Of a DNA stretch of 32,000 nucleotides, positions 23,117 to 30,079 are shown in pieces. The translations under genes were made by a program, and so were the position numbers. This DNA is from an uncultured archaeon (GTDB lineage: Archaea; Asgardarchaeota; Thorarchaeia; Thorarchaeales; Thorarchaeaceae), in assembly GCA_964354495.1 (NCBI GenBank), contig CAYHAA010000013.1, positions 30,001 through 62,000 on the forward strand. Reading direction: 5' to 3'. Under the pieces are notes generated by a model. That model did not search any database, was not told where the DNA came from, and saw nothing but the letters and a program-made list of their open reading frames with translations. Each line of letters starts with the position of its first letter. The first letter of the stretch is position 1.

Positions 23117-24517
23117 ATGAGCTGGAAAAACGATTCACTTGATAGACTATTCAATCCGCGTGCTATTGCAGTAGTTGGAGCGTCGGACAAGCCAGACAAA
23201 CTTGGTGCCCTGTCTCTGCTAGCGCTACATTCCTATGAGGGAACTGTTGTACCTGTGAACCCTCGACTCAAATCAATCCGAGGACTTGAATGCTATCCGA
23301 CCGTGGAGTCGATAGATGCCCAAATAGACCTTGCAATCGTAGCCGTCGGCCCACAGCACGTACTTCCTGCACTGGAGGATTGTGCCGCTGCGAAGGTAGG
23401 AGGTGCCATCATTTTCTCTGCGGGATTCAAGGAATTGGGCGGACTTGGAATAGAGCACCAACTCCTCCTCAGAAAGCTGGTCGACAAAGCCCACATAGCT
23501 GTTATTGGGCCAAACTGTTTGGGTGCTGGCAATCCGAGAATCGGCCTCAATGCTACATTCTTCCCGCATCCGGTTACGATGAGGAAAGGAACAGCCGCAT
23601 TGGTGAGCCAGAGTGGAGGAGTCACCGGCCTCATGCTCTATCGCGCCTCGGACGTTGGCCTTGGAGTGTCCAAGTTCGCCAGCGTTGGAAACAGAGTGAA
23701 TATCGATTTTCATGACATGGTGCGCTACCTCCGAGATGATCCTCAGACCGAAGTAATCTGTCTATTCATCGAGGGGACTGAGTATGGTCGCGAAATGATG
23801 AGTGAGATTGGCAAGACAACCCCATTGAAACCAGTAATCGTCTACAAGGTGGGCAAAACACCCTCGTCTCGAGAAGCCGCCTTGAGCCACACTGGGAGTC
23901 TTGCTGGGAACGCAGAACTCTATAGCGCTGCAATAAGACAATCAGGAGGGATTGAGGTCTCCGGGATTGAGGATATGATCGACCTCGGGTATCTCCTCTC
24001 AACCTCGAAACATCGCCCCAAAGGAAATCGAGTCGCAGTCGTGACCCATACGCTTGGAATTGCGCTTATTGTTGCACAGGTACTTGAAGAGAATGGAGTG
24101 ATCCTACCTGCTCCATCTGAGAGAGATGCGAAGCTGATTCAGGATAGTCTTGGCATGCCCGTTGAGATACCTATCAAGAATCCCATAGACCTGCTGGCGA
24201 CCGGCTGGGCGAATCCTAAGATCTTCGCTGGTGCGCTAGAGCTCATCCTCCATGAGGAGCAATACGATGCTGTAGTCATTGTCTTTTCACCAAACTATCA
24301 GGAGAGTATAGGGGGAGGGATGCCTATCAATGAGATTGTCAAGCTTGCTCAAGAAGCCGACAAACCAGTCATCAGTGTCTTGACTTCGCCTGATTCACGA
24401 AAACCGCCCGGGTATGAAACTCTTGAAGCTGGCGGAATCCCGTTCTATTCTAGTCCGCAGAGAGCTGCAAGAGCACTCAGCTATGCAATCAGACTTGCAC
24501 AAGCCAGATTGGCGTAG
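23117..24517 (+). CDS. acdA: Acyl-CoA synthetase (NDP-forming) alpha subunit
   Basis: FNPRAIAVVGAS, VIGPNCLG, SQSGG, phospho-His SHTGSLAG, NPIDL. Confidence 0.9.
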   Translation: MSWKNDSLDRLFNPRAIAVVGASDKPDKLGALSLLALHSYEGTVVPVNPRLKSIRGLECYPTVESIDAQIDLAIVAVGPQHVLPALEDCAAAKVGGAIIFSAGFKELGGLGIEHQLLLRKLVDKAHIAVIGPNCLGAGNPRIGLNATFFPHPVTMRKGTAALVSQSGGVTGLMLYRASDVGLGVSKFASVGNRVNIDFHDMVRYLRDDPQTEVICLFIEGTEYGREMMSEIGKTTPLKPVIVYKVGKTPSSREAALSHTGSLAGNAELYSAAIRQSGGIEVSGIEDMIDLGYLLSTSKHRPKGNRVAVVTHTLGIALIVAQVLEENGVILPAPSERDAKLIQDSLGMPVEIPIKNPIDLLATGWANPKIFAGALELILHEEQYDAVVIVFSPNYQESIGGGMPINEIVKLAQEADKPVISVLTSPDSRKPPGYETLEAGGIPFYSSPQRAARALSYAIRLAQARLA

Positions 24518-24579: not shown

Positions 24580-25908
24580 TCAGTACGATACGGAATTCAG
24601 CGTCCCATCTAGTAGGGCTCCATAGGCTGCCATATCGAAGTGCCCATGACCTGAGAGATTCAAGATTATCACTCTTTCCTCATTTCGTTTCTTTGCATCG
24701 AGTGCAATATCGATTGCAGCCTTTATCGCGTGGGCAGATTCTGGAGCTGGAATGATACCCTCGGTTCTCGCAAAGAGCATACCCGCTTGCAGGACCTCAA
24801 TCTGATCATAGGCGCGGGGCGTGATTCTGCCCTCTTCCACCAAGGCACTAACTGTAGGAGCCATGCCATGGTATCTGAGGCCCCCCGCATGTATCTTTGG
24901 AGGAACGAAGTCTGCCCCGAGGGTGTACATCTTGAGCTTGGGAGTCATTCCAGCAGTATCACCGAAATCATACTTGTACTCACCCTTTGTTAGAGAGGGG
25001 CAGGCAGATGGTTCCACAGCGATATACTCGCAGTCACGAAAACGCTCATCAGCAAGAAAGGGGAAACTCATTCCTGCAAAGTTGCTGCCTCCGCCCACAC
25101 AGCCAATCAGTACATTGGGAGTCTCTTCAATAGAAGCCAGTTGAGCGATTATTTCCTGACCAATCACAGTCTGATGAAGAAGCACGAAGTTTAGAACTGA
25201 CCCGAGGGCGTATTTCGTATTCGGATGATTCCTAGTGTCTTCAAGAGCTTCACTGATCGCAATCCCAAGAGTCCCTGGATGATCTGGCTGTTCACGATTG
25301 ACCCTTCTTCCAAACTCAGTCCGATCCGATGGACTGGGAATGACCTCAGCACCATACATCCTCATCAGAATACCTCTGTATTGCTTTTGTTGATAGCTTA
25401 TTCGAACCATATAGATCATGGCTTCAAGTCCGAAATAGGAGCAAGCCAGAGCAACAGCACTTCCCCACTGTCCAGCTCCAGTCTCGGTCGCCAGTCGTTC
25501 TACTCCTTCTCTTTGGGCATAATACGCCTGTGCGATAGCAGTATTCAGCTTGTGGCTTCCTGTAGGTGAAACATCCTCTCTCTTGTAGTAGATGCGACAA
25601 GGCGTCTTCAAGCTCTTTTCAAGACCAACAGCCCTCTGTAAAGGCGTAGGTCTTCCTGAGGCCATTAGTATCTCTCGCACTCTCACGGGAATAGAGATTC
25701 TCCTCTCTCTTGCGACTTCTTGCTTGACGCACTCCCTAGGAAAGATGTCGAGCAATGCCTTGGGTTCAATTGGCTCATCAGTTGCGGGATTCAACGGCGG
25801 GGGGAGAGGTTTCTGCAGGTATGGCAGGATATTCACGTATTTGTTCGGCGTTTCTTCAGGATCTAAGAGTATCCGTGTCTTCATTCGACTCATTTTTTTC
25901 AGACTCAT
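24580..25908 (-). CDS. trpB2: Tryptophan synthase beta chain type 2 (TrpB2), stand-alone
   Basis: [15 protein letters not shown] (PLP Lys), [41 protein letters not shown]; in-frame ATGs at 25908, 25893 and 25884; no trpA in the window. Confidence 0.95.
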
Positions 25909-26055
25909 TCTACTTGCCGCTTCTGAGTGACAGCACCTCTTCTGAAGATGAATCGACTGTGAGTCCAGTTCATGCCATCACAGAAAGACAAGCATTCTGT
26001 GACTTGTCTTCGAGAAGAAGACGCATTCGTGCCACCGATGGCCATAATTGGCGAA
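25885..26055 (-). promoter_or_regulatory. Structured trpB2 leader with mutually exclusive hairpins
   Basis: Stems 26022-26017/26011-26006, 26010-26003/25992-25985 and 26002-25995/25985-25978; 25956-25948 can pair with 25893-25885. Confidence 0.6.
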
Positions 26056-26059
26056 GCAG

Positions 26060-26113
26060 CTAAACGGGCCAGAAGAGGCCCCACTGCCATTGGCCAAGGC
26101 ACACTCGAATCAT
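26060..26113 (-). CDS. Putative Trp-rich leader peptide (MIRVCLGQWQWGLFWPV)
   Basis: ATG at 26113 to TAG at 26060; three TGG codons; lies between the TATA box and trpB2; below the ORF-track size cutoff. Confidence 0.65.
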   Translation of the reverse strand: MIRVCLGQWQWGLFWPV

Positions 26114-26155
26114 GCTTTCACGCCCAGAAACGGTAACTCCTGAGCAATTTCGCCG

Positions 26156-26164
26156 AAATATAAA
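26156..26164 (-). promoter_or_regulatory. TATA box for the trpB2 leader transcript
   Basis: Minus strand TTTATATTT; predicts a TSS at about 26135-26140, just upstream of the leader ATG. Confidence 0.65.
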
Positions 26165-26167
26165 CAT

Positions 26168-26203
26168 TGTGCAGAAAGCGACATTAATGTATATTTCTGT
26201 ACA
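26168..26203. promoter_or_regulatory. 36-bp imperfect palindrome, candidate operator
   Basis: TGT-g-CAGAAA-gcg-ACATTAATGT-ata-TTTCTG-t-ACA; 14 of 18 symmetric positions are complementary. Confidence 0.55.
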
Positions 26204-26386
26204 CTGAGACTTCTGCAGGAGCTGTTACGCATTCTGTATATTCTAGGAAGGAATTCACGGATGGGAGAGCACGGACTCGTCGTCATACTGCCCGACGGAT
26301 GTACGAGGCACTCAGAGGTTGGAGTTTCTCCCAGAACTGTTAAATCTCACTTCCGGCATCTGCATGTCGCACAGGATGAGCCTGAA

Positions 26387-26932
26387 ATGGTCGAAACTGG
26401 GTCTGATTATGTCCTCAAGATGGTCGCATTGGGTGACGGCGCGGTCGGAAAGACCAGCTGCATCATGCGATACACTGAGAACAGATTCGGTGAGCAATAC
26501 AAGGCGACCATAGGGACCAGTATAGCAGTCAAGAATGTAGTCGTGAAGATTGGGGGAATGACCCGAAATGCGCAGATTGTCCTCTGGGATCTCGCAGGAC
26601 AGCCCACTTACAAGGACCTACGTCAAAGGTACATGGTCGGCTCATCGATGGCATTCCTTGTCTATGATGTGACACGTGCAACCACCTTCCTCAATATCGA
26701 TGACTGGTACAGGAGTTTCCGCAAGGTGTGTCCAGATGCCATTGTCGCACTGGTGGCTAACAAGGTTGATAGAAAGGACAGAATAGTGCCGCCTGAAGCA
26801 GGTACAATGCTTCAGAAATGGCTTGATGTTTTGTACTTGGAAACATCGGCCCTTACCGGACAAAACATCAACGCACTCTTTGAGAAGTGTGCAGAGATGG
26901 CAATCGAGCGGGAACTGGCTAAGGAAACCTAG
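26387..26932 (+). CDS. Rab-like small GTPase
   Basis: G1 GDGAVGKTS, G2 TIG, G3 WDLAGQ, G4 ANKVD, G5 ETSA; LVYDVT. ATG at 26387 after GGATGA preferred over the track start 26261. No C-terminal Cys. Confidence 0.95.
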   Translation: MVETGSDYVLKMVALGDGAVGKTSCIMRYTENRFGEQYKATIGTSIAVKNVVVKIGGMTRNAQIVLWDLAGQPTYKDLRQRYMVGSSMAFLVYDVTRATTFLNIDDWYRSFRKVCPDAIVALVANKVDRKDRIVPPEAGTMLQKWLDVLYLETSALTGQNINALFEKCAEMAIERELAKET

Positions 26933-27002: not shown

Positions 27003-28508
27003 CTACGGGTAGAATGTTAGAGCCGCTTGAAATGCATAATCGAGCACAAGGTTTGGCATGAGAAGCAACAAGAGCACTACCGCGACACAGATGCCTGCTG
27101 AGAGCATCGAAGGGCGTGGCAGACGCAGCTTGACATCATCGGCTGGCTCTAGCATGTAGGCGTATTTCAAAACGCGCAAGTAGTAGCCTAGAGAAAAGAC
27201 TGAGTTCAGGAGGCCCACCAAAGCCAGCCACCACATGCCTGCAACAATTGCGCTCTGGAATACAACTAGCTTCGACCAGAAACCGACACCGACTGGCAGA
27301 CCAGCCAAAGAAAGCATCAAGATTGCAAGCATTGCTGACGCCACCGGAGCCTTCTTGCTGAGCCCAGCCAGATCGTCGTAGGTTATCCGTTTTGCTAGTG
27401 TGAGGGACATTGCCCATACCAGAATGAATGCCGCTGTCTTCATGATGGAATGGGCGAAGGCAAAGAAGACTGCTGATGCCATTCCAATTTCGTTTCCGGC
27501 GGCGATGCCAATAAACAGGTATCCCATCATTGCAATACTTGAATATGCAAGCATTCTCATGATGTCCTTCTGAGCCAGTGCCAGCACATTCCCAATGACC
27601 ATTGTCAGGATAGCGACTCCAGCTATCAGAGGAGCCCACTCTGTCTTAGCAACGAAGAAAGCAATCATGAGAATTCTCATGAGAGCACTCACGCCAGTCT
27701 TCTTTGACGCACCAGCTAGATACGCGGTAACGCTTCCGTCAGCGCTGGCGTACGCATCTGGCACCCATTGCCACCCAGGAAAGATACCTACCTTGAATCC
27801 AAATGATACAATGAAGAGGACCATGGCCAGAAGCAGCGTATAGGCAGAAGACTCGCTTCCGAGGGGAGTTGCCCAGAGGCTTGTAATGTAGATCCTGATT
27901 GTCTGCAAGTCCGTAGAGCCTGTAACGCCCAAGACGAGAGCGATGCCTAGTAGCATAAGAGCAGTTGCCAATAGACCTATCACGAAGTACTTCAGCGCAC
28001 CATCTACGGCCTCCCTGTGAGGGCCAAGAGCGACCAGTACATAGGTAGGTGTAGACATTAGCTCCCAAGCAATGAACAAGGCTACGAGATCGGTTGCCAT
28101 GACGACCCACAGGCCACCTGCGAATGAGATGAGAAGCAGAAAGTTGTAGGTCCCCTTGTCTCCGCCCCATACGCTCGATGACATCAGGACCAGGAAGGCC
28201 ACAATCAGCACAATGTAGATGAAGTTGTCACTGAAAGCATTTCGAACAAAGAGCGTTCCAAAGGAATAGCCTGACATTGTCTCTGGATTGAGCAAGACCA
28301 TCTCAAGTGTTGCAAGAGCTACACCAACGAAGCTAACACCGAGGGGATTGTATCTAAGACCAATTACCAATGCGAGTAATGCGAAAAGTACAAGGGTTAT
28401 CGCTGGGAGCGACATGATCCAACCATCAGGAACGAAAGCAAGGATTGCATCTGTCAATCCAGAGAAAATACTTCGCAAGAAACTCGCAATCAAGTCCAAT
28501 TGCATCAT
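27003..28508 (-). CDS. nuoN: NADH:quinone oxidoreductase-like subunit N
   Basis: AWELMS, ALKYF, FKVGIFPGWQWVPDAY, MLAYSSIAMMGY; ATG overlaps the nuoM stop (TGATG). Confidence 0.9.
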   Translation of the reverse strand: MMQLDLIASFLRSIFSGLTDAILAFVPDGWIMSLPAITLVLFALLALVIGLRYNPLGVSFVGVALATLEMVLLNPETMSGYSFGTLFVRNAFSDNFIYIVLIVAFLVLMSSSVWGGDKGTYNFLLLISFAGGLWVVMATDLVALFIAWELMSTPTYVLVALGPHREAVDGALKYFVIGLLATALMLLGIALVLGVTGSTDLQTIRIYITSLWATPLGSESSAYTLLLAMVLFIVSFGFKVGIFPGWQWVPDAYASADGSVTAYLAGASKKTGVSALMRILMIAFFVAKTEWAPLIAGVAILTMVIGNVLALAQKDIMRMLAYSSIAMMGYLFIGIAAGNEIGMASAVFFAFAHSIMKTAAFILVWAMSLTLAKRITYDDLAGLSKKAPVASAMLAILMLSLAGLPVGVGFWSKLVVFQSAIVAGMWWLALVGLLNSVFSLGYYLRVLKYAYMLEPADDVKLRLPRPSMLSAGICVAVVLLLLLMPNLVLDYAFQAALTFYP

Positions 28509-30079
28509 CAAGGCATACCTCCCAGGAGCATCTGTTCAATAACTGGTTGTACTACTCCGAGAATCAGGTCAGGCCATATTCCAAGCAAGATGACAGGAAT
28601 CAGCATCAGTATTGGCGCGACCAGGTCATTCCAAGAGGCCTCAGAGACCTCCACTTGAGGGTCAGGGTCGCTGAACACAATTCTGTTCAGCATCCACAGC
28701 ATGTAGCCCACCGTGAGAAAGATACCAAAGGCAATCAGTGCCGACAGAGGGTATATCACAATAGATCCAAAGATGACCAGTGCTTCTGCGATAAAGCCGC
28801 TAAAGCCAGGCAAACCAAAAGCCGCGAGTGTGGCGATTATGAACACTCCAGAAAGGCGCGGTGCTTTTGTCATAAGTCCCTTGACATTAGGAATTTCCCT
28901 TGTCCCTGCACTGTATTTGAGCTGACCAGAAACAATGAACATCACGGAAATTATCGTCCCGTGAGAGAACATCATGAATATTGAACCCTGAACGGCCAAG
29001 TTTGCTGCAGCCTGAATTGCAGGATCTGCGGAGTTGTAACCAGCGGCATATGCAGCTACACCAAGCAAGACCCAAGCCATATGATTGATCGAGGTGTACG
29101 CGACTAGGCTCTTCATGTCAGTCTGAGCCAGTGCAGTGAAAGCAGCATAGATGCACGTAAAAACAGCGGCAACTGCAAAAGGAATGGCTAATCGTGCCAT
29201 AGCCTCAGGTACCATCCACAAACCAAGACGGATGAATGCATACCCTCCCATCTTCAGCAGGATTCCAGCAAGAATGACAGATCCAGGTGTCGGAGCCTTC
29301 ACATGTGCCCATGGAAGCCAGTTGTGAAGCGGAAAGACGGGCAATTTCACGCCTGCACCCACAAAGAGTGCAAGGGCAAATCCAATTTGAATGGTTGGAT
29401 CAAGTCCAATGTTGCGTAGCGCGACCATATCGAAGGTAGGCACATGATTAACTGTGAAGCTGGAGGACATGAAGTAGAGATAGAAAAATCCCACCAACAT
29501 CACAGCAGAGCCGAGGTGGGTGTAGATGAAGAACTTGATTGAGGCATGTCTGCTGCCTTCCTCACCCCACTTACCAATGATGAAGAACATGGGCACTAGA
29601 ACAAGCTCCCAGAATATGAAGAATCCAATCAAATCGAATGAAACAAAGACTCCCAGCAGCCCTGTCTGCAGCAGAAGAAACAGAGCATAGTACACATTTG
29701 CTGAATTCTTGATGTGATTCGACCCGATGGCCGCAATCCATACTACGAGGGTGGAGAGCAGGACCAAGACCATCGAGATACCATCGACACCAAGGATGAT
29801 CTCAAAGACTGGAGAATCTGTGGTTGTACCTAGTCGAGCTAAGATATAGCTCCAGGTGTGACTCAGACCGCCTGGAGCTGGACCTACTGATGGAGTGCCC
29901 AGCATCAGGAGTACGGAAAGACCCAGCTCTAGAGTTGTGATGGCCAGCGTGATGGCTCGCGCTCCCTTGTTTCCGAGGAGATACGCTAGGAATGCGCCAC
30001 CTAGAGGCATCACAAGCATTAGAACAAGGATGTTCAATGGAAGACCGTTGATTAGACCCGTGGCAAAGTCCAGCTGCAT
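28508..30079 (-). CDS. nuoM: NADH:quinone oxidoreductase-like subunit M
   Basis: FFIFWELVLVPMFFII, KLPVFPLHNWLPWAHVKAPTPGSVILAGILLKMGGY, KSLVAYTSINHM. Confidence 0.93.
   Translation of the reverse strand: MQLDFATGLINGLPLNILVLMLVMPLGGAFLAYLLGNKGARAITLAITTLELGLSVLLMLGTPSVGPAPGGLSHTWSYILARLGTTTDSPVFEIILGVDGISMVLVLLSTLVVWIAAIGSNHIKNSANVYYALFLLLQTGLLGVFVSFDLIGFFIFWELVLVPMFFIIGKWGEEGSRHASIKFFIYTHLGSAVMLVGFFYLYFMSSSFTVNHVPTFDMVALRNIGLDPTIQIGFALALFVGAGVKLPVFPLHNWLPWAHVKAPTPGSVILAGILLKMGGYAFIRLGLWMVPEAMARLAIPFAVAAVFTCIYAAFTALAQTDMKSLVAYTSINHMAWVLLGVAAYAAGYNSADPAIQAAANLAVQGSIFMMFSHGTIISVMFIVSGQLKYSAGTREIPNVKGLMTKAPRLSGVFIIATLAAFGLPGFSGFIAEALVIFGSIVIYPLSALIAFGIFLTVGYMLWMLNRIVFSDPDPQVEVSEASWNDLVAPILMLIPVILLGIWPDLILGVVQPVIEQMLLGGMP

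Follow-up and report, generated by a model that had tools for sequence, protein, structure and literature searches.

The stretch of DNA analysed here (the window, 32,000 nucleotides) carries on its minus strand trpB2, a gene for a stand-alone TrpB-like PLP enzyme (24580..25893). Its product is identified as TrpB2-type by the models NCBIfam NF009057 (675.6 bits, cut-off 366) and TIGR01415 (633.5 bits, cut-off 518.85), and falls under the cut-off of the canonical trpB model TIGR00263. The first ATG of the open frame is at 25908, and orthologues support the ATG at 25893 as the likely start. A gap of 350 nt, which contains a TATA box and a mini-ORF on the minus strand, separates trpB2 from a divergent gene whose product is a small GTPase of the Ras/Roc family, extended at its N terminus by ∼50 residues (26261-26932, plus strand). 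The locus is flanked by a CoA-binding/succinyl-CoA-ligase-like gene (23117-24517, plus strand) and by two adjacent genes for Proton_antipo_M (Mrp/Nuo-type) membrane subunits (27003-30079, minus strand), and no tRNA or tmRNA gene lies within the window. In most other species of the genus the position of the GTPase gene is taken by a different, longer gene, so the leader moves with trpB2 and not with this neighbour. No matches to Trp_syntA, Chorismate_bind or IGPS were found in the organism's own genome (G000, 97.7% complete), which yielded no trpB1, trpA, trpE or trpC. With no other trp gene found in a genome this complete, TrpB2 looks like the sole Trp-forming enzyme and the organism's only apparent route to Trp, presumably from indole and serine, which suggests Trp auxotrophy with indole salvage.

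The mini-ORF (MIRVCLGQWQWGLFWPV, 26060..26113, minus strand) consists of 17 codons and a stop and reads ATG (26113-26111), ATT CGA GTG TGC CTT GGC CAA, TGG (26089-26087), CAG, TGG (26083-26081), GGC CTC TTC, TGG (26071-26069), CCC GTT and TAG (26062-26060). From its stop it is 151 nt to the first ATG of the trpB2 frame and 166 nt to the supported start. The TATA box TTTATATT (26157..26164, minus strand) is a TTTATA/CTTATAA element conserved in the family ∼51 nt before the ATG of the mini-ORF; applying the usual archaeal promoter spacing, we infer that transcription starts near the A at 26134, although this start is unmapped. The ORF listing extends the frame to an in-frame ATG at 26167, within the TATA box, which is irrelevant if transcription begins near 26134. 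Among 1871 intergenic regions lying upstream of genes in this genome, scanned for ATG-initiated ORFs of 8-90 codons, only four (0.2%) held one with at least three Trp among its last 12 residues, and one of the four is the trpB2 leader; the remaining three lie ahead of a radical-SAM gene and of two genes without a Pfam match. A pattern search and nhmmer, both run on the whole genome, found no second copy of the leader element, and cmscan of positions 25700-26400 against Rfam, with E-values up to 10, gave only five chance-level matches (12-16 bits, far under the gathering scores), none of them Trp_leader (RF00513), a T-box or a riboswitch.

Orthologues of trpB2 were gathered at genus, family and phylum level, the nearest public relatives being named Candidatus Thorarchaeota, and nhmmer with a profile of the genus core retrieved 49 leader loci before trpB2, with every one of the 12 genera sampled in the family represented. 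Within the genus this core is nearly invariant (CCGTTTCTG..ATG..CGAGyGTGCCTTGGCCAATGGC-N4-GGGyCC-loop-GGrCCCGTTTAG) and is preceded by tandem TGTACA boxes and a BRE/TATA element. Across the family, the conserved TGG is preceded by a start codon and followed by a stop in its own frame in every one of the 49 leaders. The ATGs lying 15-36 nt before this TGG are in frame in 50 cases, versus 9 and 2 in the other two frames, and the in-frame ones sit, according to genus, at offsets of -21, -24, -27 or -33. The two loci that lack an ATG carry an in-frame GTG, in one of them after AGGAGG; Shine-Dalgarno evidence was given little weight, as the 16S rRNA 3′ end is absent from the assembly and a generic anti-Shine-Dalgarno sequence had to stand in for it. 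An in-frame TGG stands next to the hairpin P3 (described below) in 48/49 leaders, as CAA-TGG in 47 and as CAC-TGG in one (L056), and in locus L070 the CAA-TGG has been lost and a TGG re-created in frame two codons downstream. The encoded peptide is a different matter, since the residues over P3 change completely along with the stem sequence, the stop is displaced by 5-11 codons in two genera, and homologous P2 nucleotides are read in different frames in two genera (CGA GCG TGC versus AGC GTG CGT). Together with the frame evidence this indicates that what is conserved is an ORF leading to the UGG and not a peptide, and the conservation of the mini-ORF in the family is not due to chance. Within the genus, CCAATGG and the adjoining nucleotides do not vary, third codon positions included, and one orthologue (L009) has a premature in-frame stop within P3.

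These comparisons bear on a preliminary description of the window, in which a TATA element and a 17-codon ORF had been placed on the minus strand about 150 nt ahead of trpB2; both lie as described there (TATA 26164-26157). That description had also put the chance of three or more Trp codons at ∼0.25%. This figure agrees with our genome-wide scan, but only one of the three counted codons is conserved in the family, so the enrichment was partly luck. W9, whose codon belongs to the family-wide Gln-Trp pair CAA-TGG (26087..26092, minus strand) and is the proposed sensing codon, is the conserved one. W11 is recurrent, with a second Trp at +2 in 13/49 leaders where ∼1 in 16 is expected, and W15 is lineage-specific. 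The W15 codon, made of one loop base and the first two bases of the P3 3′ arm, is shared only with the nearest relative and is probably incidental; most family members have a single Trp codon. Orthologous leaders without Trp-codon uORFs would have refuted the proposal, and it passed this check, as a start, a TGG by P3 and a stop are present in all 49.

One genome (G350, contig C6) has two trpB2 copies 10 kb apart, L056 and L070, each with a leader, and the second of these lacks TGTACA boxes. In a genome assigned to another genus (G376, contig C109), a second trpB2 (L035) has gene and leader of the type found in the window's genus (76% identity, with a genus-type core), and could reflect a mis-binned contig or a transfer.

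Folding of whole leaders repeatedly yields two long-range helices, P1 and P2, and a local hairpin, P3 (GGGCC-TCTTCT-GGCCC, 26066..26081, minus strand), lies inside the 3′ half of the ORF. P3 is found in all family leaders and begins exactly 5 nt past the TGG in every one of them. Of its five pairs, three show changes on both sides and none is broken among 44 sequences, the stem occurring as GGGCC/GGCCC, GGGTCC/GGACCC, GCGTCC/GGACGC, GGCTCC/GGAGCC and GGTCCTTCT/AGAAGGACC. The 5′ strand of P1 (CCGTTTCTGGGCG, 26121..26133, minus strand) occupies the predicted 5′ terminus of the transcript, immediately ahead of the uORF start, and pairs with GTCACTCAGAAGCGG (25917..25931, minus strand), ∼25 nt before the likely trpB2 start. 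The 5′ strand of P2 (ATTCGAGTGTGCC, 26098..26110, minus strand) covers ORF codons 2-6 and pairs with a segment past the stop; MFE and duplex predictions give GGCCA ... GGCACGAAT (26025..26043, minus strand) as the partner of 26092-26110. Directly past P2 follows a pyrimidine tract (TCTTCTTCTC, 26012..26021, minus strand), which is present in most family leaders with a mean of 8.8/10 C/U versus 7.8 in control windows, while T-runs of at least five occur in only 6/48 leaders.

RNAalifold on 20 genus leaders found P1 independently (11 pairs, 4 of them compensatory). A family-wide MAFFT alignment with RNAalifold recovered P3 only, because the 3′ strands misalign, and we therefore used an alignment-free swap test in which the pairing energy of a strand with its own partner is compared with that for partners from other genera. 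For P1 the own partner was better in 12/12 genera (-20.8 versus -13.2 kcal/mol; sign test p = 0.0002), and for P2, whose covariation support rests on this test, in 11/12 (p = 0.003). The crossed pairings P1a:P2b and P2a:P1b showed no advantage of own over foreign partners (7/12 genera), which both validates the test and argues against a competing second fold. The covariation of P1 also implies that leader and trpB2 start are on one RNA, so that co-transcription is inferred, without any RNA data.

Several other structural readings were tried. An alternative fold combining P1a:P2b with P2a:P1b, suggested by a GAGYGTG direct repeat, was rejected for lack of a covariation signal, and equilibrium folding with the footprint of a stalled ribosome masked gave no recurrent new helix. 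Sequestration of the trpB2 ribosome-binding site was rejected at the level of secondary structure, the site being predicted equally open in all states with or without the ribosome mask. A C/D-box or K-turn reading of CTGA...ATGATA was likewise rejected, as the CTGA covaries within P1 (CCGAG and CTGGG variants). A TRAP-like protein site on spaced UGG triplets is unlikely, given the in-frame stops directly after the Trp-codon clusters of other Asgard archaea described below.

The promoter itself carries a further conserved element. Abutting the TATA box is a candidate operator (26168..26203, minus strand) consisting of TGTACA (26203-26198), a degenerate TATACA (26193-26188) and TGCACA (26173-26168) at ∼10-15 bp spacing, and 48/49 family leaders have 2-4 tandem TGTACA-like boxes upstream of TATA with a spacing of ∼10-11 bp, in variants such as ATGTACA, GTACA, ATGAACA and ATGCACA, which run into the BRE/TATA. 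TGTACA is presumably the TRP box of TrpY, and the tandem boxes are candidates for a repressor operator, a function that is inferred. A triple TGTACA site (TTTTGTACAGCATGTACAATGATTTGTACA) also occurs between a TATA-like TATATATG and the ATG of a small regulator gene (L117 2000-2420; G000 contig C5 152899-153319), and the G000 gene product of ∼100 aa is a PF0610-like winged-helix and Zn-ribbon protein (PF21476 7.5e-18, PF23470 1.2e-10). This PF0610-like wHTH/Zn-ribbon gene is a candidate for an autoregulated repressor acting on the TGTACA boxes.

Beyond the family, we searched the upstream regions of 52 non-Thor Asgard trpB2 genes for TGG clusters, defined as three or more in-frame TGG in a span of eight codons, whether or not they formed part of an ORF. 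Such clusters were found 22 times in sense and 4 times in antisense orientation. An in-frame stop comes no more than five codons after 19 of the 22 sense clusters (∼21% by chance), and 16/22 have an in-frame ATG. Clusters with a close stop occur in eight non-Thor Asgard families and contain 3-4 TGG, with up to 5 Trp in one ORF tail (MATLKIVTWCWQWPWRS is an example of such a Trp-dense leader ORF). No excess of TGG clusters was seen in ∼70 trpB2 loci from other phyla. The Asgard layout can be stated as an ORF of 13-30 codons located 150-250 nt upstream of trpB2, with its first Trp at codon 8-11, a hairpin at or just past the last Trp codon and a stop soon after, and the leader in the window meets all of these criteria.

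Taking together the observed ORF, its frame and Trp codon, the fixed geometry, the three helices, the co-transcription indicated by P1 covariation and the recurrence across Asgard families, we favor, with reasonable but far from complete confidence, the interpretation that this structured 5′ leader, co-transcribed with trpB2, is a Trp sensor read by the ribosome; translation, stalling, direction and output are inferred. In such a model the ∼240-nt stretch from promoter to trpB2 would be a structured leader whose short ORF is translated while the RNA is being made. If charged tRNA-Trp is scarce, the ribosome would wait with the UGG (26089-26087) in its A site, with a footprint of roughly 15 nt behind it and 12 nt in front, which takes in the inner half of the strand of P2 as well as the spacer leading to the base of P3. 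A ribosome positioned over the inner P2 strand and abutting P3 would keep P2 and the closed fold from forming. If Trp is plentiful, the ribosome would melt P3, stop just past it and leave, after which P2, P3 and then P1 may close, and closure of P1 would also bury a purine-rich stretch ahead of the ORF start. The open state would favor a full-length, translatable trpB2 mRNA, and the closed fold, or the P2 stem with the pyrimidine tract, would favor early termination or decay, both outputs being inferred. P2 and the pyrimidine tract are reminiscent of a terminator, but T-runs of five or more are rare, and hairpin-dependent termination has, to our knowledge, not been established for archaeal RNA polymerase. 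Raising TrpB2 when Trp-tRNA is short makes physiological sense. Several observations speak against a sensor: a single conserved Trp codon makes for a weak one compared with classical leaders, the invariance of CCAATGG including third positions shows a constraint on nucleotides for which an RNA motif by itself could account, a mutually exclusive helix was not detected, the trpB2 ribosome-binding site is predicted to be open in all states, T-runs are few, and L009 has its premature stop.

If the leader is instead a structured cis-regulatory RNA that directly senses a small ligand, an RNA-binding protein or, in the way of a T-box, tRNA-Trp, the ORF would be untranslated and CCAAUGG would be a pocket or helix. 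Such a model accounts well for a three-helix fold with covariation, for the invariance of TTGGCCAATGGC in 20 species, synonymous positions included, and for the combination of a single conserved UGG, no alternative fold and an unconserved peptide. It does not predict in-frame starts at four different offsets with GTG replacements, the in-frame TGG re-created in L070 after loss of the motif, or the excess of a second in-frame Trp, and a binding site has no need of the 3-5 in-frame TGG that occupy this position in other Asgard families, in 19/22 cases with a stop no more than five codons away; moreover, no Rfam family matches. We regard direct sensing as unlikely, if still possible. A product of the ORF could also be what matters, either as a trans-acting micro-peptide or as a TnaC-kind Trp-dependent arrest peptide with a conserved Trp followed by Pro-Val-stop. 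Within the genus M[IT]R[VA]CLGQW..GP..PV is indeed well kept, and most members end in Pro-Val-stop. Across the family, however, the residues past the Trp are replaced entirely as the hairpin sequence changes, two genera have a stop shifted by 5-11 codons and homologous nucleotides are read in different frames, so that the conservation of the peptide within the genus is explained at the RNA level and a functional peptide appears very improbable. That the ORF arose by chance in a long intergenic region can practically be dismissed: three other upstream regions of the genome do reach the same Trp count, but chance is refuted by the conservation at 49 loci, the frame evidence, the covariation and the phylum-wide pattern.

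A different question is whether the leader regulates at all. If a Trp repressor at the tandem TGTACA boxes does the regulation, leader and ORF may do no more than contribute to mRNA stability or to a constitutive efficiency of translation, for instance by pairing the 5′ end or loading ribosomes. The near-universal TGTACA-like boxes in the family promoters (48/49) and the triple site at another locus of the genome, ahead of a wHTH/Zn-ribbon regulator gene, fit this idea, as do the pairing of the very 5′ end in P1 and a trpB2 ribosome-binding site predicted to be open in every state. A role for the repressor alone does not account for the in-frame retention of a Trp codon, and of no other, at a constant spacing from P3, nor for the repeated occurrence of Trp-dense ORFs ahead of trpB2 in Asgard families. 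The two controls are not mutually exclusive, and we hold the exclusive version to be distinctly improbable. The presence of tandem TGTACA boxes in the promoter of a gene with such a leader implies that repressor and leader control probably coexist and act together, with neither taking the place of the other.

Textbooks describe leader-peptide attenuation as a bacterial mechanism, one that needs coupled transcription and translation. The closest parallel to the ribosome-read Trp sensor proposed here is E. coli trpL (Rfam RF00513, Trp_leader), which shares with the window a short ORF with one or more Trp codons near its end, co-transcribed upstream of a Trp-synthesis gene, in which part of the ORF is a strand of a leader helix, the position of the ribosome decides the fold and charged tRNA-Trp is sensed. 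The Thor leader differs from trpL in its archaeal host, in the absence of a sequence or Rfam match and in having one conserved Trp codon instead of tandem ones. Neither an antiterminator alternative nor a clear terminator composed of a hairpin and a U-run was detected, a long-range helix closes the whole leader, and the target is a stand-alone trpB2, no other trp gene having been found. Measured against a classical attenuator, the window's leader has the short ORF (49/49, on the same transcript as inferred from P1 covariation, without RNA data) and a conserved cognate codon (at least one TGG by P3 in 49/49), the enrichment of this codon being weak in the family and strong in eight other Asgard families. 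Terminator and antiterminator structures that exclude each other were found neither by the swap test nor by masked folding. In its logic the Thor leader thus stands near bacterial trpL attenuation, but it does not satisfy the structural criteria of that family. The preliminary description had proposed ribosome-mediated attenuation, and of this the Trp-sensing leader is supported, while a strict terminator/antiterminator switch, for which no competing fold was detected, is not shown.

Among other ribosome-dependent systems, pyrBI- and ermC-type attenuation resembles our proposal in that the ribosome masks one helix strand in a leader ORF and a separate antiterminator is not strictly needed; these systems are bacterial, with defined terminators or sequestered ribosome-binding sites, whereas the output element of the Thor leader is unidentified. 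T-box riboswitches are also structured leaders of amino-acid genes that display the cognate codon (here UGG), but they are bacterial and untranslated and have a Stem I with specifier loop and a T-box bulge, none of which was found in the window's leader, and the frame evidence favors its translation. In Methanothermobacter thermautotrophicus, TrpY/TRP-box repression acts on trpEGCFBAD and on trpB2. The TrpY system thus resembles the window in that its targets include trpB2 and that the window's promoter has tandem TGTACA boxes, but it is a DNA-level repressor without a leader ORF. TrpY recognizes TRP boxes in the promoter region and acts as a repressor with Trp (PMC6737238), and beyond this repressor and the activator Tar reported in the same 2019 paper little is known of Trp control in archaea (PMC6737238). 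The preliminary description had taken repressors to be the characterised archaeal mode, to which the window adds that boxes of this kind stand beside a leader, so both probably operate. Its suggestion that the leader might be undescribed agrees with our literature search, which found no publication on Trp-codon leaders of this kind in archaea.

If the interpretation of a ribosome-read Trp sensor is correct, use of the ribosome to gauge the supply of amino acids extends to archaea near the eukaryotic stem. The leader would control the only Trp-making enzyme found in the genome, a simple logic in which indole is salvaged when Trp-tRNA is short. The Thor-type leader also suits experiment, as three helices, a fixed spacing between codon and hairpin and a single sensing codon allow clean mutants. 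A broader proposal, which we put forward only tentatively and which may well not hold, is that ribosome-read amino-acid sensing is an old and widespread Asgard device. The Thor form would be a minimal version of it, with a single hungry codon 5 nt before a hairpin in a closed three-helix leader and without a terminator/antiterminator pair, perhaps working through leader folding before an archaeal termination or decay factor acts, and layered on a TGTACA-box repressor.

The Trp-dense leader ORFs that precede trpB2 or trp operons in Loki-type Asgard archaea provide a close comparison. Like the Thor type they lie ∼150-230 nt before trpB2, have 15-18 codons with the first Trp at codon 8-11, and show a hairpin at or just past the last Trp codon followed by a close stop. 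Loki-type leaders are AT-rich, with 3-5 alternating Trp codons and T5-T7 tracts, whereas the Thor type has 1-3 Trp codons, is GC-richer, mostly lacks T-runs and has the elaborate covarying P1/P2/P3 architecture. Finally, five Loki-type loci (L087, L102, L103, L104 and L108) share a conserved motif, TTGATTTCCAAnnTTATAATGAnACA, between the Trp-rich uORF and trpB2, ∼65-75 nt before the gene. With its TATA-like TTATAA this motif might be a second, proximal promoter in these lineages and, if so, the architecture there would differ from that of the Thor-type leader.
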